DNA from: Escherichia phage vB_EcoM_ESCO49
Length of the DNA: 64,000 nucleotides
Reading direction: 5' to 3' (one strand)
Sequence record: OM386663.1
Under the pieces are notes generated by a model. The model made no database searches and was not told where the DNA came from. It saw only the letters and a program-made list of their open reading frames with translations. Of this stretch, positions 3,611-47,568 are shown in pieces (the first letter of the stretch is position 1; every line of letters starts with the position of its first letter). Both the position numbers and the translations under genes were made by a program.

Positions 3611-11641
<8,031 letters not shown>

Positions 11642-15146: not shown

Positions 15147-15625
15147 TTCTTAATACCCTTCTTAGTAGAAATTTTATAAGCAAGGTTATCTCTTAAGTCA
15201 CCTGTCTCAACAAGAGGCGCATTAAAGCCTTTTTTCTTGACTGTGGAAGGTGCGTTAGGAGGGAGGATAGCAGAATTACCAAAACCCCTTTTAATTGCCT
15301 TTTGAGCATTCTTTGCAAATGCTTCTAAGGTATTTGAAGGGTCTGTGTTGAGACTGCTAAGTTGCTTATATAGATTCTTCTTAGTCTGCTCTAACAAGGT
15401 CTGTTTGTTTAGCATCATAGTGATTTCAAACAACCTACGATATACTTTACCAGAAGCTGAAGGAACCCCAATAACTTCTTGTAAATACATTAAAGCAGGA
15501 TAAGAAAAACCAGAGCTATGTTGACCTTGTTCTTGAAAATACCCAACTTGAGCATTAGCCGTTTGCAAGTTCTTCATAGCCCCGACTAATTTTGCTCTAG
15601 CGGGGTGAATAACCCTTTTAACCAT
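15143..15625 (-). CDS. hypothetical head completion protein
   Basis: 160 aa. Confidence 0.3.
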   Translation of the reverse strand: MVKRVIHPARAKLVGAMKNLQTANAQVGYFQEQGQHSSGFSYPALMYLQEVIGVPSASGKVYRRLFEITMMLNKQTLLEQTKKNLYKQLSSLNTDPSNTLEAFAKNAQKAIKRGFGNSAILPPNAPSTVKKKGFNAPLVETGDLRDNLAYKISTKKGIKK

Positions 15626-16074
15626 TATTCATCTCGCTCGATAATAAATACGCCATTAACACGGTTGCAGTAATCTCTGCCTTCGTATCTGGCAGCATCA
15701 CCATATTCTGTGTATTTCTTGACAGAGCAAGGATTATGACGACGCATGTCAATATCACACTGATTAATACCACCTGCATAGGGTAGTCCTGAAACAGAGC
15801 TTTTAACAAGGTCGTCATAAACAGCTTTCAGAGATTTGAATCTGGAAGAGTTACGTAAATAAACACCACCAACCTTCTCATCTCCCATCTTGGCTACTTG
15901 AAAGAGTAAATATTTAAGAGCTTTGATGGCTGCTTTCTTTTCATCCTTTCCAGACTCTAGATAGAACCACTCTAGCACAGACTGCTCGATAAGAATTTCA
16001 TCATTATTAGTGTCTGTGCAGAGGATTCTTACTCTATCAAGAGGGTTATTGGCTGGGTCGCCTGTATAACACAT
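15625..16074 (-). CDS. hypothetical head completion or connector protein
   Basis: 149 aa; directly downstream of capsid gene. Confidence 0.3.
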   Translation of the reverse strand: MCYTGDPANNPLDRVRILCTDTNNDEILIEQSVLEWFYLESGKDEKKAAIKALKYLLFQVAKMGDEKVGGVYLRNSSRFKSLKAVYDDLVKSSVSGLPYAGGINQCDIDMRRHNPCSVKKYTEYGDAARYEGRDYCNRVNGVFIIERDE

Positions 16075-23192: not shown

Positions 23193-23355
23193 GGAGAAAC
23201 CACAATGTACGTCAGAGACATACTGTATAAGTCTTCCTATAAAGTATAACTCTGTAAAAAAGCCCTGTCTAAAAATACTCTTCGGTAGCGAAAGGAAGAA
23301 TACTTATAGCAGGGCATTATTATTATTTTAATTGAGAGAGAGTAAAATAACTTGG

Positions 23356-23428
23356 AGAATCCGAAGGGACTTGAACCCTTATAAACCTGTTTTGCAGACA
23401 GGCACATATCCATTTCTGTCACGGATTC
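23356..23428 (-). tRNA. tRNA-Cys (GCA)
   Basis: acceptor 7 bp, T-arm AAGGG-TTCAAGT-CCCTT, anticodon stem CCTGT/ACAGG, loop CUGCAAA. Confidence 0.7.
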
Positions 23429-23436
23429 GAAATTGG

Positions 23437-23525
23437 GGGAAGATACCAGACTTGAACTGGTACACCGATTTCTCAGCTACTGGCAGTTTAGCAAACTGCT
23501 CCCTTACCTTTAGGGTTAATCTTCC
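23437..23525 (-). tRNA. tRNA-Ser (GCU), long variable arm
   Basis: 89 nt; T-arm, anticodon stem GCAGT/ACTGC, plus-strand loop TTAGCAA. Confidence 0.65.
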
Positions 23526-23526
23526 A

Positions 23527-24309
23527 TTATCTCTGTAATGCGCTCTTCATTTCTGGTGTTGCAATAGTATCAATCACACCAGTTTTACAAGCATCATCAA
23601 ACCAGTCTGGTAAGATACCTGCTAAGAACCCATTGATATTCGTTTTAAGGTACTCTGCAATAAGGGCAGCTTCTTCTTCAATCATCTGCACAACTTCATC
23701 TGCATAAGCTGTAATCTTTGAGATACCTTCATTAATCTTACTAACAGCCTGATTAGCTAAATCAGAAACAGTCTCAAGACCCTTATCAATAGCGTCTTGT
23801 AAGTCACTTAACACACCATTAACACTGTCTAGTGTGCTGTTAATCATGTCAATAGCTTGCTGACCATACTCTGTAGCAACACCCATAATACCACTAAATG
23901 GTGTACAACCAACTTGTTCTCCTGCTGCACCCATAACATTGGAGTATCCCTTTGCTACCTGCATACGTGATGAAAACTCATCAATAGACTTTTGACCGTA
24001 GTCTGTTAGGGTCTTAGTAGTTGCTGTAGTGCTTGTAAGGCTTGTTGTAAAGCTGTTTAGAAGGACTGTTGTGAGTCCAGCAGCAACAAGCTTCTCCTTC
24101 ATTGTAGGGTCTGTTACAGAGCTAATAGAGCTTACAAGTGATGTAGAGGCAGCTACGGTTCCACCGAGAACTGCTGCACCAGTAATAAGTGGGTTAGAAA
24201 ACCCTCTACCGGTTTTTAAGAGATTAAAAATCTCCTTACCTTGTTCTGTCATCTCTTTCATTAAGCACCTTTGAAATTGGTACTCCATATCGGATTCGAA
24301 CCGATACAT
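23527..24309 (-). CDS. hypothetical protein
   Basis: 260 aa; Ser/Thr/Ala-rich middle; embedded in tRNA region. Confidence 0.4.
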   Translation of the reverse strand: MYRFESDMEYQFQRCLMKEMTEQGKEIFNLLKTGRGFSNPLITGAAVLGGTVAASTSLVSSISSVTDPTMKEKLVAAGLTTVLLNSFTTSLTSTTATTKTLTDYGQKSIDEFSSRMQVAKGYSNVMGAAGEQVGCTPFSGIMGVATEYGQQAIDMINSTLDSVNGVLSDLQDAIDKGLETVSDLANQAVSKINEGISKITAYADEVVQMIEEEAALIAEYLKTNINGFLAGILPDWFDDACKTGVIDTIATPEMKSALQR

Positions 24310-24356
24310 AACACAGATTTTAAGTCTGGCCTCTCTGCCAATTGGAGTAATGGAGC
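24281..24356 (-). tRNA. tRNA, anticodon read as UAA (Leu-type), standard length
   Basis: acceptor GCUCCAU/AUGGAGU (G1-U72), T-arm ATCGG-TTCGAAT-CCGAT, 4 bp anticodon stem, loop CUUAAAA, A73. Confidence 0.5.
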
Positions 24357-24362
24357 ATTGGC

Positions 24363-24434
24363 TGGGGATGTTGGAATTGAACCAACTTCTTCGATTTCAA
24401 AGACCGAGGTTTTAACCTTGTAAACTAATCCCCT
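24363..24434 (-). tRNA. tRNA-Gln (UUG)
   Basis: T-loop TTCAATT; anticodon stem with one G-U; plus-strand loop TTCAAAG. Confidence 0.6.
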
Positions 24435-24442
24435 TTAAATCT

Positions 24443-25000
24443 TTACTTTCTCAGTGGATGAATAAAGAATGCCAACATAACTCTTTCCCTTGAGAATGCT
24501 CTTTCTTCTGGGACAACACTTTTTAGTTTCCATCCAATATAAATTCTCCAGTAAAACTGTTTACCAAAGATTTTAATTGATGGGATAAAAGCGAATAATC
24601 CCCAAGCATTGCTATTCCACATTAGGAGATAACCAGTCTGATTATCTTCAGGGTCAGAACTTACGCTGATATTACCTTTCCACTTAGTAACATCTTTTAC
24701 ATCTCTTCCTAATACATGGTAAGAGAAGTTATAAGCTTTGTTTCTCCAGAGCCATCCAACTCTCTGCATGTAGACACCCAGCTTACCAATCTTTCTAATC
24801 TTAGCCCATCTTTTAACGTGGCCTTCATCACCATCAATCGGGTTGTCATAGGTCTCCATCCATCTGAATCCAAAAGGTAGATGCCCTTTCTTCTCACTGT
24901 AGAATGGAACCACGAAAGGTGCTAAGATGACTGCTAGGGTTGCTGCAAATGGTTCTAGTAAAGCTAGGAAAATCCATGAAGCATACTTCAAATATCTCAT
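24443..25000 (-). CDS. hypothetical membrane protein
   Basis: 185 aa; hydrophobic N-terminus; between tRNA genes. Confidence 0.4.
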   Translation of the reverse strand: MRYLKYASWIFLALLEPFAATLAVILAPFVVPFYSEKKGHLPFGFRWMETYDNPIDGDEGHVKRWAKIRKIGKLGVYMQRVGWLWRNKAYNFSYHVLGRDVKDVTKWKGNISVSSDPEDNQTGYLLMWNSNAWGLFAFIPSIKIFGKQFYWRIYIGWKLKSVVPEERAFSRERVMLAFFIHPLRK

Positions 25001-25022
25001 CTAAATAGCCTCTTAAAATTGG

Positions 25023-25098
25023 TGTTCCAAGACGGATTCGAACCGTCACTAATACAAGGTTTGAGCTTGCATCCTCTGCCAATTGGGATACTGGAACA
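25023..25098 (-). tRNA. tRNA, anticodon read as CAA (Leu-type), standard length
   Basis: T-arm GACGG-TTCGAAT-CCGTC perfect; acceptor 7 bp with one G-U; loop CUCAAAC; A73. Confidence 0.5.
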
Positions 25099-25101
25099 TG
25101 G

Positions 25102-25173
25102 TACTCACTAAAGGACTTGAACCTTTTTCTTCATCTTGTAAGGGTGATGTTTTACCATATAAACTAAGCGAGT
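25102..25173 (-). tRNA. tRNA-Val (UAC), tentative
   Basis: T-arm AAAGG-TTCAAGT-CCTTT; D-arm GUUU-AUAUGGUA-AAAC; anticodon stem with one mismatch; plus loop TTGTAAG. Confidence 0.5.
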
Positions 25174-25271
25174 GTGAAAGAGGTCTGAAGTTGTGCCGCT
25201 AACTCAACTCCGTGGAATTTGTTACGGTCTTCAGTTGACACCAGCGGTCTTTCACTTGACCTCTGAATTGG

Positions 25272-25345
25272 TGCTGCTCACAGGACTCGAACCTGCATTT
25301 CCATCCTTACAAGGGATGTGTAATAGCCAATTATACGAAAGCAGC
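25272..25345 (-). tRNA. tRNA-Thr (UGU)
   Basis: perfect anticodon stem CATCC/GGATG, loop CUUGUAA; T-arm and acceptor present. Confidence 0.7.
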
Positions 25346-25354
25346 ATTATTTGG

Positions 25355-25426
25355 AGCATCCAGAGGGAATCGAACCCTCAACCTCAGTTTGGAAGACTGT
25401 AATTTTCCCGTTTAAACTATGGATGC
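25355..25426 (-). tRNA. tRNA-Gly (UCC)
   Basis: T-arm GAGGG-TTCGATT-CCCTC; acceptor perfect; loop CUUCCAA. Confidence 0.6.
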
Positions 25427-25435
25427 ACTAATTGG

Positions 25436-25508
25436 TGGAGAAGCAGGGAATTGAACCCTGTACTTAAGTTTGCAAAACTTATGTTTTAACCATGTAAACT
25501 ACATCCCC
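25436..25508 (-). tRNA. tRNA-Ala (UGC)
   Basis: anticodon stem TAAGT/ACTTA, loop UUUGCAA; acceptor GGGGAUG with G3-U70. Confidence 0.6.
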
Positions 25509-25517
25509 AATGTTTGG

Positions 25518-25590
25518 TACAGGTGGAGGGAATTGAACCCATCGTCTTACTGATTAAGAGTCAGCCGCATAACCATTTTGCTACACCTGC
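25518..25590 (-). tRNA. tRNA-Lys (CUU)
   Basis: plus loop TTAAGAG; acceptor 7 bp; T-loop TTCAATT with short GGG/CCC stem. Confidence 0.55.
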
Positions 25591-25600
25591 ATTAATTTGG

Positions 25601-25674
25601 TACACCTAGAGAGATTCGAACTCACACTGAGCAGATTCTAAGTCTGCTGCCTCTACCAGTTGGGCTATAGGTGC
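25601..25674 (-). tRNA. tRNA, anticodon read as UAG (Leu-type), standard length
   Basis: perfect anticodon stem GCAGA/TCTGC, loop CUUAGAA; acceptor 7 bp (G1-U72); D-loop with GG; A73; 5 nt variable loop. Confidence 0.55.
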
Positions 25675-25750
25675 ATTAAACCTTTTTAGAGAACTTCTAA
25701 GAACCTAAGCAACAAGGTTCCACAACAAGCCGTAATAACCTTAGAAGCCC

Positions 25751-25773
25751 TCTAAAAAGACCTAAAAAGGTCT
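25751..25773 (-). terminator. weak terminator-like hairpin (AGACC-n6-GGTCT plus U-run)
   Basis: 5 bp stem followed by UUUUAG on minus RNA. Confidence 0.3.
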
Positions 25774-25930
25774 TTGCATAGTCTTGTTTAATCCGGTGAC
25801 TAGAACCTTTGGAGAGCTTGATATTATCTCTTCTCCGTGACACCTGCTAGGTGCTTTATGAGTGTGTACGACAATACACGCGGGATACCAAAGCAACACC
25901 CTAATGAAGCTTGGCTTTAAATCTTATTAG

Positions 25931-26018
25931 GCGGTAAGTAAAGGAGTCGAACCCTCACCGTATCTCTACAGTGGCAACTGTTTTCAAGACAGTTTGGCTA
26001 CCATTAGCCGCTACCTAC
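25931..26018 (-). tRNA. tRNA-Ser (UGA), long variable arm
   Basis: 88 nt; anticodon stem AACTGT/ACAGTT 6 bp, plus loop TTTCAAG; acceptor 7 bp incl. one G-U. Confidence 0.55.
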
Positions 26019-26034
26019 CCCTAATAAGACTTTG

Positions 26035-26114
26035 GCATGGGACGGAGGAGTTGAACCCCTTTGAAACGGTGTTGGAAGCCGTTGCTCATGCCTTAGAGTC
26101 TTAACATCGTCCCA
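26035..26114 (-). tRNA. tRNA-like gene, identity unresolved (aberrant core)
   Basis: perfect 7 bp acceptor ATGGGAC/GTCCCAT, encoded CCA, T-loop TTCAACT; internal stem AACGG/CCGTT with 9 nt loop CUUCCAACA; extra nucleotides before D-arm. Confidence 0.4.
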
Positions 26115-26261
26115 TACTATAATTCGAAGCTTACCGTATTATCTCAACACTGTAAAGCCCCTTCTCAGATTATTTACATGTTCTGGAAAACATGAGATAC
26201 AGACCACCTCCCTACAGGAAGACCCGCTTAGGTCGTCTAAGTAATCTGCTAACTAAATTGG

Positions 26262-26340
26262 TCGAGGCGGCAGGACTCGAACCCGCATACTCCACTTACT
26301 CGGTTAACGTCTGTTTAGAAGACAGATGAGATACGCCCCG
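26262..26340 (-). tRNA. tRNA-like gene, identity unresolved (anticodon-like loop CUUCUAA, Arg-UCU-like, displaced)
   Basis: acceptor CGGGGCG/CGCCUCG all paired, T-arm GCAGG-TTCGAGT-CCCGC; perfect TCTGT/ACAGA hairpin sits where D-arm is expected. Confidence 0.35.
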
Positions 26341-26680
26341 TAATTATCTTTAAAGACTCTCTTAGAAAGCCCTTAAAGATGCCCACCTTATTAATCATAC
26401 CGTGGGCTAGTACGCCAAATTCTTTGATGAGGGATTGGAAGACCTCACTGGTGTTTAGCCTATCAAGCTACTGCCAGAAAAACATTGTCGTTTGCATTTA
26501 TTTTAAATTTGCAAAATAGACGCTACGCAACGAAAACTATTCAGAATATGTACAACAAATTTCCCCACATTGTGTTACGTCTAACGCTCATGTATTGGTG
26601 TTTGAATTATACATATTATGAAGTATTTTAGTTACTATAAAGTGGTCACATCTCAATGTCAACAACTTTATTGAAATTGG

Positions 26681-26753
26681 TACTGGTAGGTGGAATCGAA
26701 CCACCGACGTTCCCTTATCAGGGGAGTGTTATAACCTTCTTAACTATACCAGC
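26681..26753 (-). tRNA. tRNA-Ile (GAU)
   Basis: T-arm GGTGG-TTCGATT-CCACC perfect; plus loop TTATCAG. Confidence 0.6.
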
Positions 26754-26757
26754 TTGG

Positions 26758-26831
26758 AGGTTCAGATGGGAATCGAACCCACATTCATAGGGCTTATGAG
26801 ACCCTTGCATTACCTTATCTGCGACTGAACC
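26758..26831 (-). tRNA. tRNA with CAU anticodon (Met or Ile2)
   Basis: perfect acceptor GGTTCAG/CTGAACC; plus loop TTATGAG. Confidence 0.55.
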
Positions 26832-26838
26832 ATTTTGG

Positions 26839-37680: not shown

Positions 37681-37708
37681 GAGCCTCCTTAATTGGGGGC
37701 TTTTTATT
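37681..37708 (+). terminator. terminator-like hairpin
   Basis: AGCCTCC/GGGGGCT stem followed by TTTTTATT, end of plus-strand block. Confidence 0.5.
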
Positions 37709-37710
37709 GA

Positions 37711-39360
37711 GTGAAAATTACGAAATTTATAATTTTTATAAAATTTTATCGGTTGTCCCAACCTCTGGGTCACCATCATACGTGAATAAAATATCTATCC
37801 TTCTTAACAACCTTCTTAATCTTACTCTCTATATAGTTATATAGTACTATATAGTATCTTAGTAACTATCTAGTGGTCTTAATAGCCTCTCTGTATAACC
37901 CTTCTAACAAGCCTTCTAACAAGCCCTCTAAACACTCTTCTAACAAGCCTTCTTAATAACCTATACAATCACCTTAACCATCCCTCTATACCCTCTTAGA
38001 AGCTCCTATACACCTCTTAATCTCTATGTTACCTATGATACCCTCTATAGGTGTTCACTAGGCACTACTAAGCCTCTATATAGACTGTTTTAACAAACTT
38101 AACAGGAATATCTTTACAGACCTTATCTCACAAGGCCTAACACGGTACTAACAAGGTATCTTATAAACCTGTTTATGCCTGTATTTTAGAAAGACTGTAT
38201 AGGTAATTATTCAGAATTTTAATTTTTTTTATAAAATAGGACTGTCAAGTCATTTTTTAGGGTCTTTGAAGGAACTCAAAAATATCTGTCTAGGATGTAT
38301 ATCTGCTTGGTAGCCCTTAACAGCCCTGTAACATCCCCTTTGCAAAATTTTAAAATATCATTAACAAACTCTTAACAACTCTCTCAAGCTCTTAACATCT
38401 CTCCAAAGGTCTTAACAAATTCTTAATAGTTTTAACAAGAGGGTAACAAATTTCTAACAAGTGCTGAAAAGGCTTTACAGAATCTTAACAGATGATTAAC
38501 AAGAGCTAACAAGTTAATTTTTAAGGGTTATTTTGTTAAGATAATTAACAAGTTCCTAACAAGTATTTAACCTTTTTAACAAGCTATTAACATGGTCACT
38601 ACTCTTTTCTTATCGTTCCCTTTCTCTCTTAGTGATTCTCTAAACATACCTTTTAAAAGCTCTCTATAGCTCCTTGTAAGCTCTTTTAAGCCTCTTCCTA
38701 GTAATTACACCCCAACTATACAGACACCTCTTTATAGAGCTTTACAGGAGCTTTTAAGGCTATGTCAAAGACTCTTACAAGGCTTTTACATGGTATTAAC
38801 AGAGATTTAACAAGGGGCTAACAAGTTGCTAACAAGCATAACTATGTAGGGATTGTTAAGAATTTGTTAAAAAGATGTTAAAGGGGCTAGCATTTACGTA
38901 ACTTTTACGTAACTTTTGAGTAACTTTATAGCCCCTATAACATACTTTTAAGACACTATCAAGCCCTTTTTAGTAGTTCACGAGATACTAGTCAGCCTAT
39001 AAGCTTATACCCTTATAAGGTTCTTTTAAGCCTCTAGAAAGCTTTATAAAGGGCTTTTAAGGGTGAGGTAATGCAATCCCTTAAGTTATATTGATAAGGC
39101 TGTTATAGGGCTTTATAGGGCGTTTTAGGGGTTGCCCTTCCCTTTCGGGTTATGGGCTTGTATTTAAGGGAAAGATTAGTTGATTTGATAAAAGGCTATA
39201 GAATAAGCTATAGAGTTATTGCTTTTTAAGGTATGGGATAGAGTCTATCGAACCAGTGGGGAGATTCTGGAAAGGTGAGGGAAAGGGTTGTATAAGGATT
39301 CGATAGACGTAAAAAAGCCCCATTTAAGGGGCTGTATAAAGGTATCTGGGGCTATTTAGC
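37711..39360. repeat. 1.65 kb ORF-free, G-poor region with at least 14 exact TAACAAG iterons plus CTATAG-rich and ACGTAACTTTT repeats; candidate origin or regulatory array
   Basis: no ORF of 60 aa or more on either strand; motif counted by eye (3 near 37905-37950, 1 near 38147, 7 in 38430-38580, 3 in 38800-38850). Confidence 0.6.
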
Positions 39361-39622: not shown

Positions 39623-39716
39623 TTTTAGATTCTCCAGTTTAGGAAGTAGTTTAAGGACTTTATTTAGTGGGGAGGTCATACCCTCCCCGTTGATTGACAA
39701 TTTACAGATTTTTGAT
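39623..39716 (-). promoter_or_regulatory. early promoter/hairpin/RBS cassette, type A
   Basis: minus strand: TTGACG-N17-TAAATT, hairpin GGGGAGG-n7-CCTCCCC, RBS GGAGA, ATG. Confidence 0.55.
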
Positions 39717-40232
39717 TGTATCGTCAATGTCTTTTTCAATATCTTTTAAAGTTTTTTCTAAGTTCTTGATATTGAAAGATAAGCCCTCTCCCAATGTCTT
39801 AGAGTAAACATCAGGGCGCAAGTCATGCAGTTCGATTTCTTCCACTTCAAAGAGACTAACCAGTTCACCGCTTACATTGTAAGCCATTGAAACAGTATTT
39901 ACAGGGGCTTTGTAAAACTTGTTCAACGACTTGATAGACCGTTCATAAGCCATTTTATAACCGTTTAAAAGGTTTTTAACGTGATTGCGAACGTTTTTAC
40001 ACTCATCTAAGTAAATCCCTAAGAATAACGGCAATAACTCCGCTATAGCTTGCATAAAGTGAGAGACCACAACGGTTGCAACATTACGACGATGAACGTA
40101 ATAAGCCCCTTTTCCTGATTTAGTGATAGTTGCAAAGTGTACACCATTGCAGCGAAATTCGTAGGTATCTTTAACAGGTTTAGACATTACAGCATTTGAA
40201 CGAATGAAGTTGATAGCTTTGAACTTGTTCAT
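39702..40232 (-). CDS. hypothetical early protein
   Basis: 177 aa from MNKFKAINF; ORF-track N-terminus MTSPLNKVL is read-through of the cassette. Confidence 0.45.
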   Translation of the reverse strand: MNKFKAINFIRSNAVMSKPVKDTYEFRCNGVHFATITKSGKGAYYVHRRNVATVVVSHFMQAIAELLPLFLGIYLDECKNVRNHVKNLLNGYKMAYERSIKSLNKFYKAPVNTVSMAYNVSGELVSLFEVEEIELHDLRPDVYSKTLGEGLSFNIKNLEKTLKDIEKDIDDTIKNL

Positions 40233-40320
40233 TTTGAATCTCCAGTTTAGGACTTTATTTAGCGGGGAGGTCATCCCTCCCGTTGATTAGTACTTTACTT
40301 GTTTTGATAGCTGATTGCAA
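40233..40320 (-). promoter_or_regulatory. early promoter/hairpin/RBS cassette, type A variant
   Basis: TTGCAA-N17-TAAAGT, hairpin GGGAGGG-n5-CCTCCCC, RBS. Confidence 0.5.
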
Positions 40321-40448
40321 GCAATTTTTTAAGTTTATCTATAAAGAGTCTTTTAAGTGAATCCCTTTTAGATAAACCCCCTCGAACAAATCTACCAATG
40401 TCAAGGGGTGTTGTCAATACTTTTTGAAAGTTTTTTGTAAGTTATTGA

Positions 40449-40790
40449 TTAACTGATAAATATTTTTTCAGGCTTTACATAGCTGATACGTTGGATTTTT
40501 AGTAGGTCATTCCAGATTAATGCGGCAATATGAGAATAGCCGGATTCACGTAGAAGCTTCATTGTTTTACTTCTTGTTTCAAATCGGTTTACGTAGTACT
40601 CACTATTTAAAACCGTTTTATTGCCTTCATTGTCCACATGGATAATCTGCATTACTTGAAAGGGGCTTACATCCTCGCCTTTATTCCATTGTTCAAAGTA
40701 TTTTAGGCACTGCATAGGTGACATCTTATCACTAACCTGCGTTGACCAAGATGCGCCAGCTTTATCAGCAATTACGGTTACATAAGCCAT
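40449..40790 (-). CDS. hypothetical early protein
   Basis: 113 aa. Confidence 0.45.
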   Translation of the reverse strand: MAYVTVIADKAGASWSTQVSDKMSPMQCLKYFEQWNKGEDVSPFQVMQIIHVDNEGNKTVLNSEYYVNRFETRSKTMKLLRESGYSHIAALIWNDLLKIQRISYVKPEKIFIS

Positions 40791-40882
40791 TTTTGAATCT
40801 CCAGTTTAGGGTTTTATTTAGTGGGGAGGTCATACCCTCCCCGTTGATTGACAATTTACAGATTTTTATCCGGCTTGTCTAG
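40791..40882 (-). promoter_or_regulatory. early promoter/hairpin/RBS cassette, type A
   Basis: TAGACA-N17-TAAATT, same hairpin and RBS as 39623-39716. Confidence 0.55.
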
Positions 40883-41112
40883 TCTTTTTCAATGATAATT
40901 TCATCTTGGCCGTCAACACTGTCAAAATAGATTCCGTCGTCATCTTCTGTCTTAAAGTAGCATTTTATATCATCACTTGCGGGATAGTCTTGTCTTGCTA
41001 TCTGGCAAACTTGAATAGCATTTTCTTTACTTCCTGAAAACTCCTCAAGCCCTTTAAAGTCGCATGAATACCCATTACAGGTGGAAAGGATGAGATAAAC
41101 GGTTATAAGCAT
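40879..41112 (-). CDS. hypothetical secreted protein or lipoprotein
   Basis: 77 aa; N-terminal hydrophobic segment ending ILSTC; acidic C-terminus; preceded by a different hairpin GGCCC-n5-GGGCC. Confidence 0.4.
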   Translation of the reverse strand: MLITVYLILSTCNGYSCDFKGLEEFSGSKENAIQVCQIARQDYPASDDIKCYFKTEDDDGIYFDSVDGQDEIIIEKD

Positions 41113-41175
41113 GATTTAAGCCCCCTAAATGGCCCTGTACGGGCCTTAAGTTGGAAATTGGTGTCTTTGTATGGT

Positions 41176-41739
41176 TTAGCCTAAAAAGTCGCTCATATTG
41201 CGTTCTGTGAGGCTGTTGGTAATTTTGTCCAGTAGGTCACAATACACAGAGCTATCACCGCTATTCTGTACAATTTTTGCAATACTCAACAAATCATCGT
41301 CAATATAGCCCAAATTGCGGTTAGTTGTATCAGGTACAAAGAAAGGCGCATACATCGCACTAAAATTCGCGGAGTGGATACCAACAATCCAATTTTTATC
41401 AAAGTAACCTGTAAAGCTGGCGATGTCGCTCATATTGTCACAAGAATAATCGTCCTCAAGTTCTTCCTCTGGGATATCCATCTCAATTACAATCACTTCC
41501 TGCGTTTCCATTTGGAAAGCTGCCGTAATAAGCCCCGACTCTAAAGCATTTTGAATGCAGCGTTCACGGATGTAAGAAGCTTCTTCATCTTCCAGGCATT
41601 CCGTTTTGATAATCTTATCCATCGGGTAAACGTAAAAACAATCATCCATGTAAGAGCAGTTCCAGATACCCTCCGGCTTGTCGCCACCTTTAAGCAGGTT
41701 TACAAAGTTTTTCAGAGTAGTGCCGTGATAGCATTTCAT
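41176..41739 (-). CDS. hypothetical early protein
   Basis: 187 aa; acidic. Confidence 0.45.
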   Translation of the reverse strand: MKCYHGTTLKNFVNLLKGGDKPEGIWNCSYMDDCFYVYPMDKIIKTECLEDEEASYIRERCIQNALESGLITAAFQMETQEVIVIEMDIPEEELEDDYSCDNMSDIASFTGYFDKNWIVGIHSANFSAMYAPFFVPDTTNRNLGYIDDDLLSIAKIVQNSGDSSVYCDLLDKITNSLTERNMSDFLG

Positions 41740-41838
41740 TTTTGAATCTCCAGTTTAGGATTTAGTGGTAAAGCTCTTTATCTGGGGCTTACTATATCGA
41801 ACTATAAGCCCCTTGTAAAGTACTTTATTTGTTATTTT
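41740..41838 (-). promoter_or_regulatory. early promoter/hairpin/RBS cassette, type B
   Basis: TTTACA-N17-TATAGT with hairpin GGGGCTTA-n13-TAAGCCCC spanning spacer and -10; shared 3' part CCACTAAATCCTAAACTGGAGATTCAAAA-ATG. Confidence 0.55.
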
Positions 41839-42028
41839 TTACAACTTTTAAAACTGCAAGATAGCCTAAGCAATAGGAATCACCAAAGAGAGTCCTACCC
41901 ATGAAAGAATCTTCTTTAATATCCTTTGCAGTGACAGTTTTTTCTACGCCGTGGGAAAGGACTACATCACCAACTTTAATGTCTTTGATGTGTGTAGTTT
42001 CAATGGTTAAACCGTTAATAATAGCCAT
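41825..42028 (-). CDS. hypothetical early protein
   Basis: 67 aa. Confidence 0.4.
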   Translation of the reverse strand: MAIINGLTIETTHIKDIKVGDVVLSHGVEKTVTAKDIKEDSFMGRTLFGDSYCLGYLAVLKVVKNNK

Positions 42029-42122
42029 TTTTGAATCTCCAGTTTAGGGTTTTATTTAGTGGGGAGGTCATACCCTCCCCGTTGATGTGTAATTTAATCT
42101 ATCTAAAAACCAGTGTCAACAA
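42029..42122 (-). promoter_or_regulatory. early promoter/hairpin/RBS cassette, type A
   Basis: TTGACA-N17-TAAATT then hairpin GGGGAGG-n7-CCTCCCC then RBS. Confidence 0.6.
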
Positions 42123-42127
42123 AATTT

Positions 42128-42532
42128 TTAGAGTTCTGCATAAATTGCATCACAGACATCACGAAAATCGTGATTTGTCAAATTACGCTGTAACCAAGTG
42201 GCGAAAAAATCAGCGATTGCATAATTGGCATCATACTCGACGGATAGCCATACTTTAACAGCAAATCGAAACATCTTTAAATCAAGCTCTTTATTCATTA
42301 CCTTTGATTTGCCTAACATGTCGGACATTTCATATTGTGCGCCGTCTAGCGTGATACCTGCTGCAACGTCAGCCAATGAACTTTTTACGTTTTTAACGTC
42401 TAAAATAACGCTTTGAATCTTTCCGATAATGTTGTGCAATGTTTCATCTGGCGCTGCTGATGTCATCACATTAATCCGGTTGACGGTCAAACGTGCTTTT
42501 AAGATAGATAATTCACGGTTATTAATAGCCAT
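42128..42532 (-). CDS. hypothetical early protein
   Basis: 134 aa. Confidence 0.45.
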   Translation of the reverse strand: MAINNRELSILKARLTVNRINVMTSAAPDETLHNIIGKIQSVILDVKNVKSSLADVAAGITLDGAQYEMSDMLGKSKVMNKELDLKMFRFAVKVWLSVEYDANYAIADFFATWLQRNLTNHDFRDVCDAIYAEL

Positions 42533-42617
42533 TTTTGAATCTCCAATTTAGGATTTAGTGGTAAAGCTCTTTATCTGGGGCTTACTATATCGAACTATAA
42601 GCCCCTTGTAAAGTACT
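42533..42617 (-). promoter_or_regulatory. early promoter/hairpin/RBS cassette, type B
   Basis: near-identical to 41740-41838. Confidence 0.55.
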
Positions 42618-42890
42618 TTAAACTAAATGCAGCTTTTTGCCTTTTACCATGATGTAACTTGATGCGCTATTGCTACAAACATCCTGATAAATTCTGCGCA
42701 AACGCCCTTTATAGTGTACTTTCCAGCTGGTTGGAATCTTTTTACCGTATCCCGTAGCAGTTTTTTGGAATCCTGCAAGTTGCCAATTCAAAATATGCTG
42801 TTCAGCTTGTAAATCCTCAAAGTGCATTATGCCGTTCACATAGTGGCGTAGGGTTACGTTTAAGGTGCGACCGTTGTTAGTAGTATACAT
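42618..42890 (-). CDS. hypothetical early protein
   Basis: 90 aa from MYTTNNGRTL; ORF-track extension is cassette read-through. Confidence 0.45.
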   Translation of the reverse strand: MYTTNNGRTLNVTLRHYVNGIMHFEDLQAEQHILNWQLAGFQKTATGYGKKIPTSWKVHYKGRLRRIYQDVCSNSASSYIMVKGKKLHLV

Positions 42891-42978
42891 TTTTGAATCT
42901 CCTAGTTTAAGGGTTTTATTTAGTGGGGGGTTATCGCCCCCGTTGATGTGCAATTTAATCTATCTAAAAACCAGTGTC
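42891..42978 (-). promoter_or_regulatory. early promoter/hairpin/RBS cassette, type A variant
   Basis: TTGACA-N17-TAAATT; hairpin GGGGGCGATAACCCCCC. Confidence 0.55.
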
Positions 42979-43309
42979 AAGCATTTTGTTTTCGTTTGCT
43001 CATTTCTTGAGCAATTACAGCGTAGTAGTCTTTTAAGTCACTGGTATTTAAAGCATTTATCAGGGAATTATAATCATCAACTAACTGAAAATCATCTTTG
43101 AAGATGTCACTAATCTGGTATGTTCTCGCTTTAAATCTGAAGCTCATCTCTAGCCGCTTTATTTGCTCATCACTTAAACGCTCCAGGAAGCTCATTACAA
43201 GGCTATTATTAACCTGTTGTGTGATAGCCTTATCTGCTAAATTATAGGCTTTATATGCCTTATACAGCGCGAAAATGGCTATAATGGCGGTGACGCCGGT
43301 CATTAACAT
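42977..43309 (-). CDS. hypothetical membrane protein
   Basis: 110 aa; N-terminal TM segment; start overlaps stop of a 26-codon upstream micro-ORF. Confidence 0.45.
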   Translation of the reverse strand: MLMTGVTAIIAIFALYKAYKAYNLADKAITQQVNNSLVMSFLERLSDEQIKRLEMSFRFKARTYQISDIFKDDFQLVDDYNSLINALNTSDLKDYYAVIAQEMSKRKQNA

Positions 43310-43383
43310 GGTGTTTCCTCTTTGAAATCAATTTTATTAAGTGACTTGCTTAGATTTTCACGGACCTTATTTGATAATTTCAT

Positions 43384-43470
43384 TTTTTGAATCTCCAGTT
43401 TAGGATTTAGTGGTAAAGCTCTTTATCTGGGGCTATCTTATCAGCTTGATAACCCCGTGTAAAAAGGTCT
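43384..43470 (-). promoter_or_regulatory. early promoter/hairpin/RBS cassette, type B variant
   Basis: TTTACA-N17-TAAGAT; cassette ATG opens the 26-codon micro-ORF. Confidence 0.5.
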
Positions 43471-43472
43471 AT

Positions 43473-43985
43473 TTAGTCCTTAAAGATATTCATCACTGAA
43501 TCTTTTAATGCTTCCAATTGCTCCAGTACTTCAGATTCTGCGCCTGAATTGCTCACTTCCTCTTTTAGTCTATCCTCTAAATCAACGCCGTCACTATAAC
43601 ACCAATCAAAAGCATAACCAAGATAAAAACTTTCTAAAACCGTTTTGCCGTTTACATCTACAACTTTCGCGGCAAGGATGTATTCTGAAGCCTCTAAATC
43701 TCTTTCTAGTTCTTCCTGTAAGCTGACATAAGCCTCTTTTGATGGATTTTCCCGGCCCTGTTTTGCATAGTCACTTGAAAGCTGTTTAAGGCTATAATTT
43801 AAAGGGATTGCATATTTAAAGGCATTATGACGATAGTTGGGGTTTTTAATAGTCACGCCGCCTTGATGGTCGTCTGTAAACTCCCAATCAGCAAGATTAT
43901 GGCTTGACTCGTAGCAGTTTACCGCTTCATAGATGATTGAAAATTTTTCTTTTACAACTTCAAAAGTAGCGTCTACAGTTTTCAT
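43473..43985 (-). CDS. hypothetical early protein
   Basis: 170 aa; acidic C-terminal half. Confidence 0.45.
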   Translation of the reverse strand: MKTVDATFEVVKEKFSIIYEAVNCYESSHNLADWEFTDDHQGGVTIKNPNYRHNAFKYAIPLNYSLKQLSSDYAKQGRENPSKEAYVSLQEELERDLEASEYILAAKVVDVNGKTVLESFYLGYAFDWCYSDGVDLEDRLKEEVSNSGAESEVLEQLEALKDSVMNIFKD

Positions 43986-44071
43986 TTTAGAATCTCCAGT
44001 TTAGGGGTTTAGTGATAAAGCTCTTTATCTGGGGCTTACTATATCGAACTATAAGCCCCTTGTAAAGTACT
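43986..44071 (-). promoter_or_regulatory. early promoter/hairpin/RBS cassette, type B
   Basis: same module as 41740-41838. Confidence 0.55.
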
Positions 44072-44455
44072 TTATTTGTTAATTTTGAAAATTGTCACAT
44101 AGCCATCGCTCCCGATAATTTGAGATACTCCAGCTTTTTCTACTGAATAGCCCATATTCTCAAGATGATAAACAGCATCATCATAACCATATGCGCCGCC
44201 CTGATAACGTCTCTTATCACATCTTATCAGGTTTTTACCACGTCCTGCAAGTGCATTTAGTACGGCTTTTTCACTTGAAAGCGTACCATCTAACATTGTT
44301 GCCGTGTAGTGGTTGATTCTGTTCCCGTTAATATCATACTTAAAATTGAACGAGTGAACAACAACTATTTTATCGTTAAATTTTTCATCAAGCGCCTTCT
44401 CTAATACATTACGGAAATTTTCTTTATTGATGAATTTAGGTGCACGATATGCCAT
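44072..44455 (-). CDS. hypothetical early protein
   Basis: 127 aa. Confidence 0.45.
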   Translation of the reverse strand: MAYRAPKFINKENFRNVLEKALDEKFNDKIVVVHSFNFKYDINGNRINHYTATMLDGTLSSEKAVLNALAGRGKNLIRCDKRRYQGGAYGYDDAVYHLENMGYSVEKAGVSQIIGSDGYVTIFKINK

Positions 44456-44543
44456 TTTTGAATCTCCTAGTTTAAGGTTGTTGATAAAGCTCTTTATCTG
44501 GGGCTTAAGATATCAACTTTTAAGCCCCTTGTAAAGTACTTTA
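44456..44543 (-). promoter_or_regulatory. early promoter/hairpin/RBS cassette, type B variant
   Basis: TTTACA-N17-TATCTT; hairpin GGGGCTTAA-n11-TTAAGCCCC. Confidence 0.5.
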
Positions 44544-44750
44544 TTAGATATCGTAGTAATAAACTGCTGTCTGTCTTATGTGCTTTCTTGTGTTTCTTGT
44601 AAGGTAGCAATTAGAGTTTATAGCCGTTTCTACATAATTGCAATAGTCAGACTCTGAAATTCTGGACCATGCGCCGCAAATTTGCATGTAAAAACGTTTT
44701 ACATTTGTGTTAACGTTAGTTGTGACCATCAATTCACGACCGTATAGCAT
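44544..44750 (-). CDS. hypothetical early protein
   Basis: 68 aa; Cys-containing. Confidence 0.4.
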   Translation of the reverse strand: MLYGRELMVTTNVNTNVKRFYMQICGAWSRISESDYCNYVETAINSNCYLTRNTRKHIRQTAVYYYDI

Positions 44751-44812
44751 TTTTAGATTCTCCTAGTTTAAGGCTATCGGGCTTATCGCCCTGTCTGATG
44801 CAAATACTAGAT
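44751..44812 (-). promoter_or_regulatory. partial cassette (RBS half plus short hairpin GGGC-n5-GCCC)
   Basis: CATTTTTAGATTCTCCTAGTTTAAGG shared with other cassettes. Confidence 0.4.
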
Positions 44813-44994
44813 AACCCCGTTCAAATAGTCAATAAAATTTTTAAAAATATTTTTGGCAAAAATGTAATGAAACGGGTGCGCGCGAATACCACAAAACAGA
44901 ACACAAATCAAGAATTATTTTTCAATCCGCTACAAATTTTTCTGTTGACTTTTCTTTTCGGATGTGGTAGCCTTGTGAGAAATGGCGACATCCC

Positions 44995-45195
44995 CACCTA
45001 CACCCACCTACCTGCACAATTCTAAAATGATTTTTCTTGCCCGACCTGATTTTTCTCTGCACGTTTTGAAAATGAAAAAGCTCTTTGGAGATTACCTGCA
45101 CAGTTTGAAAATGAATTTTCTCTTTGGAGTTCAAGATTTTCTCTACAGATTTCTCTATAGAAATATACCTGCACAATTCTGAAATGAAAAAGCCC
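44995..45195. repeat. three degenerate direct repeats (ACCTGCACA[AG]TT[CT]T[AG]AAATGA...CTCTTTGGAG) in an intergenic region
   Basis: copies near 45004, 45093 and 45166 read by eye. Confidence 0.5.
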
Positions 45196-45261
45196 TCCTT
45201 ACCTGAAAAAATCTACCAGATAAGAAAGGCTTAGTCTATTGTGAATATTATACAGAGTTTC

Positions 45262-46047
45262 TTAGTTCTTTGCGTCTAAGAAGGTTACTTCCGGTGAAGA
45301 GAAGACCGTCTCAATATCCTCATCAGTTCTTGCATAGATGTATGTATCTGCATCACTGCCAAATGTTACAGCTATCCTGTGATTGCTCTTCGACAGGTGG
45401 GTAACTAGAGCGTTACTTAGAGACATCTTTTCAACCGGAGGGTTACTTTGATGTATCTTACCTTTTCTTCGTCTGAAGAGGGTAACTGTATTGTCCGTGA
45501 ACACAACTACACCTGCAAAGTATTCTGGTTCACAGTAGTTTTTCCAACCTGAGTGTAACTCGTTGTACATCTCTGTCTCGTAGACATACAGATAAACATC
45601 TACGCTCTTCATAACCTGATTGATGATAACTGTGACAGCTTGAGGGTCCAGCCCACCGATACCTGCACCAATCATAGGTAGGCCAACCTTCTTCAACTGG
45701 TTAACTTCACAGTATCTGTTAAGTTGCTTCAAAGATGACTCTAAAGCACTGTATCGGGCGTCTTTACCAGTCTTAAGCTGAGTGTAAAGGTTAGCTATAC
45801 GACCTTGTTTTAAACGTGCTACAGAGAAGTTACCCAGTAAATTTTCACAGGGTTTGTGGCCTATACCACCTGCATAGATGTAAACTTCTGTATCGGTCTC
45901 ATATGCTTTTGGGTAAAGTTTAGAAATCTTGTCAGCGATACCTGCACCCATTAAATTCATACAGTTGCAACCGTGACCAATGATGTCAAACTTACCTTTA
46001 TCAAAGGCGTCAAAGATATCACCATTGATGATTTTTACAATACCCAT
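45262..46047 (-). CDS. macro-domain (ADP-ribose binding/processing) protein with C-terminal extension of unknown function
   Basis: 261 aa; N-terminal GDIF...DIIGHGCNCMNLMGAGIA and LPMIGAGIGG Gly-rich motifs. Confidence 0.6.
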   Translation of the reverse strand: MGIVKIINGDIFDAFDKGKFDIIGHGCNCMNLMGAGIADKISKLYPKAYETDTEVYIYAGGIGHKPCENLLGNFSVARLKQGRIANLYTQLKTGKDARYSALESSLKQLNRYCEVNQLKKVGLPMIGAGIGGLDPQAVTVIINQVMKSVDVYLYVYETEMYNELHSGWKNYCEPEYFAGVVVFTDNTVTLFRRRKGKIHQSNPPVEKMSLSNALVTHLSKSNHRIAVTFGSDADTYIYARTDEDIETVFSSPEVTFLDAKN

Positions 46048-46791: not shown

Positions 46792-47061
46792 TTACTTCCT
46801 CGTTTTAAGAACTGCTAAGATTTCTTTAGAGTCTGGTAAGAACCATGTGTAGTGATTTTCTTTGATTTCTGGATGAGTGTCAACCTTTATTTTGCACTCT
46901 TTACCAACATGCTTAAGCTGTGCTGTGACACCTTGCATAAAGATATGGCACATCACATTATCCATAATGGTTGGTGAGAAATCAATTCGCATATAAGTTT
47001 CTTTTGGTCGTGGTAACAGTAAGTAACCCTCTACATAGAAAGTATCTTGGTTCTCTGTCAT
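46792..47061 (-). CDS. hypothetical protein
   Basis: 89 aa. Confidence 0.4.
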   Translation of the reverse strand: MTENQDTFYVEGYLLLPRPKETYMRIDFSPTIMDNVMCHIFMQGVTAQLKHVGKECKIKVDTHPEIKENHYTWFLPDSKEILAVLKTRK

Positions 47062-47327
47062 TGCTGCTTATTCCCTAGTAAAATCATGTCAATAAGGTTG
47101 TTAGCTTTGATTGTGCACTGGTAAAAGCCGTCACGATAGAACTCAAGTGCTGCTGCTACATCACTGCCTGTGTTGCCTTTGATGATATACCGTGACTCTT
47201 CTTGAGTGTACTTATCACTCTCACTTACTTGGGAGTTTTTGAATGTACTGCTCACTTTGTTCGTTGAACACCCTGACATAATTATCAGTAACACAAACAT
47301 TATAAAACTCTGGCTTAGTTTTTTCAT
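47058..47327 (-). CDS. putative o-spanin (outer-membrane lipoprotein, Rz1-like)
   Basis: 89 aa; signal peptide with lipobox IMSGC; gene starts inside the upstream i-spanin-like gene in another frame. Confidence 0.45.
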   Translation of the reverse strand: MKKLSQSFIMFVLLIIMSGCSTNKVSSTFKNSQVSESDKYTQEESRYIIKGNTGSDVAAALEFYRDGFYQCTIKANNLIDMILLGNKQQ

Positions 47328-47568
47328 ATGTTAGTACCTCTTTTGTATGCTTATTCTTAGCAAGCACATCTTTCAAATCATTTTTGTAATTGGTGCTCAG
47401 TGTGGCTAACCCTTCCTGATAAGCATCTTTAGCAACACTTATGAGCTTCTGATTGTTTAGCTCAGCTTCAGCAACTTGATAGTCTCTGTAAGAGTATCCT
47501 CCCCAGACACCTGCCCCAACTAAGAAAACAATTATGAAAGTGGCTTGACAGAACTCTTTAAATGTCAT
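47221..47568 (-). CDS. putative i-spanin (Rz-like)
   Basis: 115 aa; N-terminal TM helix then charged periplasmic segment; overlapped by lipoprotein gene. Confidence 0.45.
   Translation of the reverse strand: MTFKEFCQATFIIVFLVGAGVWGGYSYRDYQVAEAELNNQKLISVAKDAYQEGLATLSTNYKNDLKDVLAKNKHTKEVLTYEKTKPEFYNVCVTDNYVRVFNEQSEQYIQKLPSK

Follow-up and report, generated by a model that had tools for sequence, protein, structure and literature searches.

Between its macro-domain gene and its first small early gene, Escherichia phage vB_EcoM_ESCO49 (OM386663.1) has a gap with an array of short direct repeats, which raises the question of whether this stretch encodes a product, starts or ends transcripts or serves as a set of binding sites in the DNA itself. 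The analysed window comprises 64,000 nucleotides of this Felix O1-like myovirus, a member of the genus Felixounavirus within the subfamily Ounavirinae. The gap is 510 nt long, both of its flanking genes are located on the minus strand, and the array sits past the terminator of the macro gene; a conserved sigma-70-type promoter lies around 180 nt downstream of the array. The flanks had been recognized correctly in the original prediction: the macro-domain protein gene (45262-46047, minus strand, 261 aa, Pfam PF01661) closes the upstream operon, and it is followed by a minus-strand block of small genes with one promoter per gene, which occupies 39.3-44.75 kb of the window. As also described there, the stretch itself is covered by short, mutually overlapping open reading frames (ORFs) only. 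In Felix O1, several of the corresponding early-block ORFs peak 5 min after infection (PMC3185647). Elsewhere in the window, a pair of overlapping ORFs (89 and 115 aa; 47058-47568), which lie in an otherwise early-expressed operon, match Rz-like spanin families, and 19 tRNA genes are clustered on the minus strand (23353-27708), as expected for Felix O1-like phages.

The direct repeat itself could be confirmed. A 22-mer, TACCTGCACAATTCTAAAATGA, is found with up to three mismatches at three sites (45009, 45093 and 45166), compared to none expected from 100 shuffles, and a looser core, CTGCACNNTTNNRAAATGA, is found at four sites (45012, 45057, 45096 and 45169) compared to 0.53 expected. The same four positions are the starts of the core CTGCAC-NN-TT-NN-RAAATGA in the window, and the exact matches to TGCAC-N7-AAATGA in the 64 kb are the four array sites only. 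Three copies had been proposed; however, the actual count is four, and unit 2 (45054-45090) had been overlooked as a copy. The positions given for two copies, 45093 and 45166, were accurate, whereas 45004 is displaced by about 5 nt from the true position 45009. The supposedly interleaved 'TTTGAAAATGAA...CTCTTTGGAG' units are the 3' halves of copies 2 and 3 together with a 10-nt box; the array is therefore composed of one repeat family with four members.

All four units share one orientation, with a core of 18-22 nt and a motif of around 22 bases. Read on the minus strand, a unit consists of a purine-rich 10-nt box (CTCCAAAGAG, GTCGGGCAAG or GGTAAGGAGGGC), an A or T tract of 4-5 nt and the bipartite core TCATTT-N7-GTGC(A), which is found nowhere else in the window; GTGCA is usually followed directly by GGTA. 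Unit 4 (45166-45205), the first unit on the minus strand, is made up of the box GGTAAGGAGGGC, TTTTT and CATTTCAGAATTGTGCAGGTA. It is followed on the same strand by unit 3 (45093-45129; CTCCAAAGAG, AAAAT and TCATTTTCAAACTGTGCAGGTA), unit 2 (45054-45090; CTCCAAAGAG, CTTTT and TCATTTTCAAAACGTGCAGAG) and unit 1 (45009-45046; GTCGGGCAAG, AAAAA and TCATTTTAGAATTGTGCAGGTA). The start-to-start spacing is 73/39/45 nt in the window and 75/41/45, 91/35/45, 37/37/39 or 56/43/53 nt in relatives, and a comparison of these spacings revealed no conserved helical phasing. No inverted-repeat pairing was found between units, which are asymmetric direct repeats without dyad symmetry. An alignment of 60 distinct units showed that the information content is highest at TCATTT and GTGCA and that the 7-nt gap between them is fixed; the core and the A/T tract are near-invariant, whereas the sequence of the N7 segment and the spacers between units are variable. 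The fixed gap places TCATTT and GTGC(A) about one helical turn apart. The tract preceding the core is A-rich in some of the 60 units and T-rich in others while its position is unchanged, which fits a read-out of the shape of duplex DNA rather than an RNA or coding signal.

On the minus strand, the order within the gap is terminator and unit 4, a tandem pair, units 3, 2 and 1, a G/C-rich tract, a conserved block (44941-44912), an A/T-rich segment, promoter, leader and small gene. According to RNA folding, the intrinsic terminator of the macro operon (45186-45231, minus strand) has a stem of 15-17 bp and a T tract, which doubles as the 5' part of unit 4. It equals the Felix O1 terminator t13 (PMC3185647, Table 2) and is annotated as a terminator in the records of wV8, Tribble and XTG1. 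The tandem pair TCTATAGAGAAA / TCTGTAGAGAAA (45138-45161) occupies the long interval from unit 4 to unit 3; each of its members contains an 8-bp palindrome, and a joint hairpin is possible. The element ATCTGTAGAGAAAAAT, which takes the form of a tandem TCTRTAGAGAAA pair in the window (45138-45161), accompanies the array in Felixounavirus, in the Hafnia phage Zyzzx and in the distant contig L141 (around 700-735 in L138 and 4655-4672 in L141), and lies within the array in the window and beyond it elsewhere. Adjacent to unit 1 is a polymorphic G/C-rich tract (44960-45008), which exists in two unrelated forms. The form of the window is G-rich on the minus strand and contains a small hairpin; many relatives, including Felix O1, wV8, Suspvirus and Mooglevirus, have a C-rich run on the minus strand instead (CCCCTCTCCCCCTCTTACTCCCCCTCCCCCC), whose four G runs on the plus strand have the potential to form a G-quadruplex.

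Downstream of this tract, a second conserved non-coding block (44912-44941; AAATTTGTAGCGGATTGAAAAATAATTCTTG on the minus strand) shows a nucleotide diversity of 0.017 among 16 Felixounavirus sequences and, according to the alignment, is also kept in Mooglevirus and Suspvirus. The promoter scan identified a sigma-70-type promoter, TTGACT-17-TAGTAT, with an A/T-rich upstream element (44804-44856, minus strand; hexamers 44832-44804), which is the first promoter of the small-gene block. Both hexamers are preserved in Felixounavirus, Suspvirus and Mooglevirus sequences, and phiEa104 carries its own TTGACT-17-TATATT promoter at the corresponding place, although the alignment does not put the two in register. 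The first small gene past the promoter (44544-44750, minus strand) encodes a protein of 68 aa with unknown function (PHROG 5293) and is missing from the complete UAB_Phi87 genome, in which the array is retained. Copies of a 91-nt promoter/leader module are present at five small genes further downstream. Two families of modules of 74-91 nt are found upstream of small genes, five at 41737-44543 and four at 39631-42096; each contains a sigma-70-like promoter (e.g., TTTACA-17-TATAGT) within a GGGGCTTA...TAAGCCCC hairpin, with a leader and a ribosome-binding site after it, and the counterparts of the two families in Felix O1 are the listed 57-bp and 39-bp direct repeats.

The repeats are kept across genera at three to four copies. 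A 1.3-kb query around the array matched 247 phage records with identities of up to 94.6%, and a 281-nt array query matched 289 records, 210 of which cover at least 80% of the query. Identities are mostly 92-98% with the 281-nt array query, which reaches 95-98%, and are higher than with the 1.3 kb around it, which reach 91-95%. Nucleotide diversity, taken over 16 distinct Felixounavirus sequences, is 0.017-0.036 in the best-conserved 30-nt windows of the array and reaches 0.08-0.13 in array windows that include spacers, compared to 0.03-0.17 in the macro gene and 0.25-0.36 in the G/C-rich tract. The core is present in three to four copies in Felixounavirus, Mooglevirus, Suspvirus, Kolesnikvirus, a Hafnia phage and a distant metagenomic relative, and it stays the same across genera while the spacers between the units diverge. 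Suspvirus and Mooglevirus have four units each, the Kolesnikvirus phiEa104 has three good units and one degenerate unit, an Erwinia-phage-like contig has four units with a spacing of 37/37/39 nt, and the Hafnia phage Zyzzx has three to four units, which end in GTGCTTATAA. The distant metagenomic phage (L141), whose macro protein is 36% identical, has four units (GACTAACGAGCTTTTTCATTYYRAWWCYGTGCAGG; spacing 91/35/45 nt), and its array is located one gene further away from the macro gene. Upstream of this array, at 4200-4440, L141 also contains the direct repeats GTTACGAAGCTGGG (three copies, with a G-rich run) and CAGAAACGC (four to five copies). In VpaE1 and phiWec174, the end of the macro gene and the terminator belong to another allele, yet the core of the array is retained exactly. 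The order of terminator, array and promoter was found in every lineage compared, whereas the distance between array and promoter and the intervening G/C-rich tract differ between lineages. Copy number is steady at three to four in relatives despite turnover of the units.

In the complete 87-kb genome of UAB_Phi87, the core is restricted to the array, and searches of 5,426 E. coli genomes and 72,556 plasmids found no similar DNA. A two-copy pattern scan of 185,579 species genomes gave unrelated matches only, and the host genera, namely Escherichia, Salmonella, Shigella, Citrobacter, Erwinia and Hafnia, yielded none; together, the pattern scans of species genomes and metagenomes retrieved only Ounavirinae arrays or unrelated repeats. 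A soil metagenome contig (Ga0066686_10188277; 20-230, minus strand) contains five near-perfect 42-nt tandem repeats with TTTTCATT-N8-GTGCA, whose likeness to the phage array is possibly coincidental. Judged by these sequence comparisons, the array is under strong purifying selection at one locus per genome.

What kind of element is conserved in this way? A small protein was rejected: the repeats are in frame on both strands in the window, yet every frame is broken in relatives, by a deletion of 2 nt in wV8 and by insertions of 2 nt in Mooglevirus. Annotations of the records disagree, with array ORFs placed on the minus strand, on the plus strand or not at all, and the small ORFs called in the array by many records are probably spurious, which should be considered by annotators. 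A structured RNA was rejected as well, since the array has no Rfam match and the fold signal is limited to the terminator and one hairpin. The search with the Rfam 15 covariance models gave nothing inside the array, and its only match with E<=1 was a chance hit to CRISPR-DR57 within the macro gene. The plus strand folds no better than shuffled sequences (z = +0.87), and the score of the minus strand (z = -3.1) is caused by the terminator and the TCTRTAGA hairpin. A promoter class was rejected on the basis of the complete UAB_Phi87 genome, in which the motif is found at a single locus. It is highly improbable that the units are tandem promoters, used by the host or a phage-modified RNA polymerase, or that the plus strand encodes a small RNA or a leaderless small ORF. 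The only unit with a sigma-70 match is unit 4, which overlaps a 9/12 sequence on the minus strand (TTTTCA-17-TATATT), and a plus-strand TTGACT-17-TAGCCT, seen by eye at 44945-44973, would place the transcription start at the ATG of a 66-aa ORF (44982-45182); small ORFs are annotated at the array in some records. However, the -10-like hexamers differ from copy to copy and from relative to relative, and the interchange of A and T tracts at one position argues against recognition at the RNA level, as do the indels and the absence of an Rfam match and of a plus-strand fold signal against an encoded product.

A set of intrinsic terminators was likewise rejected, as a hairpin together with a T tract is found at unit 4 only and units 1-3 have a tract without a hairpin. 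The C-TTTTT-CATTT half of the units nevertheless resembles the usual terminator tail of the phage, as seen in t5 and t13 of Felix O1 (PMC3185647), and this likeness may reflect how the units arose. Duplication of terminator ends could account for part of the similarity between the units, which weakens the case for a binding array to that extent. That the repeats are nothing but evolutionary debris, that is, duplicated and functionless terminator tails retained by hitch-hiking, is extremely improbable. The 5' half of the unit equals the t5 and t13 tails, and unit 4 is, according to the RNA fold, genuinely the terminator tail. However, units 1-3 are not preceded by a hairpin, GTGCA and the fixed 7-nt gap are invariant in genera whose spacers have diverged past alignment, the diversity of the array is below that of the adjacent gene, and three to four copies have been maintained through the turnover of units.

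The best explanation is an operator or upstream-control array rather than a promoter, terminator or gene. It may be a cis element with three to four head-to-tail candidate sites for a sequence-specific DNA-binding protein, which would act in upstream control or insulation at the operon boundary; this is a plausible but tentative proposal, which draws on the conserved core, the single locus and the absence of ORF and RNA signals. Upstream control or insulation is favoured because the array always follows the terminator that ends the upstream operon and precedes the first strong host-type promoter of the terminal small-gene block. One protein subunit, or a fixed oligomer, would read two successive major grooves and the narrowed minor groove at the A/T tract. 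With all sites filled, a nucleoprotein complex would form just past the terminator of the macro operon, around 180-360 nt before that promoter is reached, and this complex might stop transcripts of the upstream operon from running on, determine when or how strongly the early block is expressed, or both. A binding protein would more likely be phage-encoded; the ten flanking proteins searched gave no match to Rep or DNA-binding proteins in Pfam and PHROG, and no DNA-binding-like structural relative was found for the extra C-terminal domain of the macro protein. The product of the 68-aa downstream gene was rejected as the cognate binder, as the gene is absent from UAB_Phi87. A by-eye comparison with the consensus sites of CRP, Fis, IHF, sigma-54, sigma-32, sigma-E, ArgR, Fur, MuA and P1 parS, which provides leads only, revealed none that fits all copies.

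The original prediction of operator or iteron sites can be upheld insofar as protein-binding repeats in cis, heading the early block, are the best-supported reading; the sequence alone does not distinguish operators from iterons, and the defining features of neither class are fully present. Around 177 nt separate the end of the nearest unit (45009) from the -35 hexamer (44832-44827), and no unit overlaps or directly flanks the promoter. Asymmetric direct repeats that far upstream of the -35 hexamer, at a distance that varies between lineages, are unusual for a classical operator; a role that does not depend on the promoter, such as that of an origin, would agree with them.

The units could be iterons of a replication origin, at which a phage or host initiator binds and opens the nearby A/T-rich DNA, assisted by the adjacent strong promoter and the G/C-rich tract through transcriptional activation or R-loop formation; overall, this is unlikely. 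Transcription-assisted origins are exemplified by T4 oriE, lambda ori and the transcription-activated T7 origins. An origin would agree with four asymmetric direct repeats of iteron-like length (at least three same-orientation copies of around 17-22 bp being characteristic of iterons) at a single locus per genome, located in a non-coding region of 500-700 nt that also contains other repeat families, the G/C-rich tract, an A/T-rich segment and a strong promoter. It would explain why the exact distance to the promoter is of no importance, and the array is better conserved than the neighbouring genes, whatever promoter-proximal gene follows. However, the spacing of 37-45/73 nt deviates from the usual value of around 22 nt, no initiator-like gene is recognizable nearby, the replication genes are tens of kb away, and the GC skew tracks the direction of transcription without an inflection at the array. 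The GTGCA half reads CTATGCACA or TTATGCACG in Erwinia phages, one mismatch from the DnaA box TTATNCACA; in the window, by contrast, each copy has three mismatches to this box and none is found within one mismatch, and the DnaA box was rejected as the identity of the unit.

The position of the array relative to the physical ends of the genome was also considered. Assembly breaks fall in or just past the G/C-rich tract: the Andreotti, LMP34, L022 and L070 sequences end in it, and L060 and L089 lose alignability soon past it, with L060 running into adapter-like sequence. The Andreotti record begins with an inverted copy of nearby sequence. A genome terminus or packaging site at the array was nevertheless rejected, as the mapped terminal repeat is located around 6 kb away. 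In UAB_Phi87, a terminal repeat of 608 bp has been determined experimentally (PMC4837284, Fig. S1). It corresponds to 15150-15757 of that genome, and its homologue lies at 38307-38879 of the window (83% identity), a mapping that is consistent with the Bal31 data, as only one SpeI fragment has a fitting size. The array is therefore located around 6.1 kb inside the repeat and 6.7-6.9 kb, or around 7.8% of the 87-kb genome, from one physical end. The surrounding gene-poor region of 1.6 kb (37700-39300) lies between convergent gene blocks, contains dense periodic repeats of 9-12 nt (CCTTCTAACAAG in 4.5 copies, CTTAACA-type units and others) and, holding the homologue of the terminal repeat, is probably the physical chromosome end of the phage.

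This position, together with the pattern of conservation, suggests a further interpretation, in which the array would be an entry or anchoring signal like the injection stop signal (iss) of phage T5 and would mark the inner edge of a terminal early block. By analogy, a host or virion protein on the array might pause or organize genome entry until early proteins are made; this is quite improbable. The stretch from the end to the array consists entirely of small genes with their own host-type promoters, and ORFs 16 and 20-22 of Felix O1, located between t13 and t23, peak at 5 min (PMC3185647). In the T5 iss region, untranslated repeats are conserved above the adjacent coding DNA (bioRxiv 10.1101/866236), and the same is true for the array. 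However, no report of a two-step injection or of the entering end in Felix O1-like phages was found in the literature, the array lies outside the terminal repeat, whereas T5 iss lies inside, it contains none of the paired DnaA boxes proposed for T5, and the positional percentage might be a coincidence.

A more general idea, which is possible but doubtful, combines parts of these scenarios: the array, the TCTRTAGAGAAA pair and the G/C-rich tract could together form an essential landmark, bound by a phage or host protein, that divides a 'first-in' host-takeover block of 6-7 kb from the remaining chromosome in all Ounavirinae and serves as a T5-like pause or anchor site or as a replication origin. 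Felix O1-like phages are in wide use for Salmonella typing, biocontrol and therapy, and the Felix O1 genome paper states that the temporal control of transcription is unknown. Few non-coding stretches found in this part of the genome are as well conserved as the array, which is present once per genome, at the border of the early block and near a physical end; being single, conserved and placed at a border, it offers a small, easily mutated handle on an organizer protein of early infection, an origin or an entry signal. No published description of the array was found in the literature searched: the list of direct repeats of at least 24 bp in the Felix O1 genome paper, which is restricted to exact repeats, omits it, and the comparative Felixounavirus papers do not discuss non-coding repeats.

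A comparison with known systems shows which features of the array are shared and which are not. With the DnaA box, it shares a GTGCA block that ends in TGCACA on the plus strand and comes within one mismatch in the Erwinia phages; however, the equally conserved TCATTT block and the A/T tract have no counterpart there. With the T5 iss region, it has in common that it is untranslated and rich in repeats and lies where a terminal early block has its inner border, around 8% of the genome away from the end. The T5 region, however, lies within a 10-kb terminal repeat and has inverted repeats and paired DnaA boxes, whereas the terminal repeat is here around 0.6 kb long and 6 kb away, the repeats of the array are direct and neither DnaA boxes nor large inverted repeats inside a long terminal repeat are present in this phage. 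The iterons of lambda ori, P1 oriR and T4 oriE resemble the array in having several asymmetric direct sites of around 20 bp with a core that extends over about two major grooves, at one locus and close to A/T-rich DNA and a promoter. They differ from it in their regular spacing of around two helical turns and in the cognate initiator gene that adjoins or overlaps them, and the array lacks a skew or replication signal. The operators of the P1 C1 and Mu repressors are, like the array, non-palindromic repeated sites in non-coding DNA between a terminator and an early promoter; in contrast to them, the array does not overlap the promoter but lies 180-360 nt upstream of the -35 hexamer and occupies one locus only, in a virulent Felix O1-like phage with no known repressor. 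Repeated protein-binding arrays are familiar in kind; new are the motif, where it is located and its conservation throughout the subfamily.
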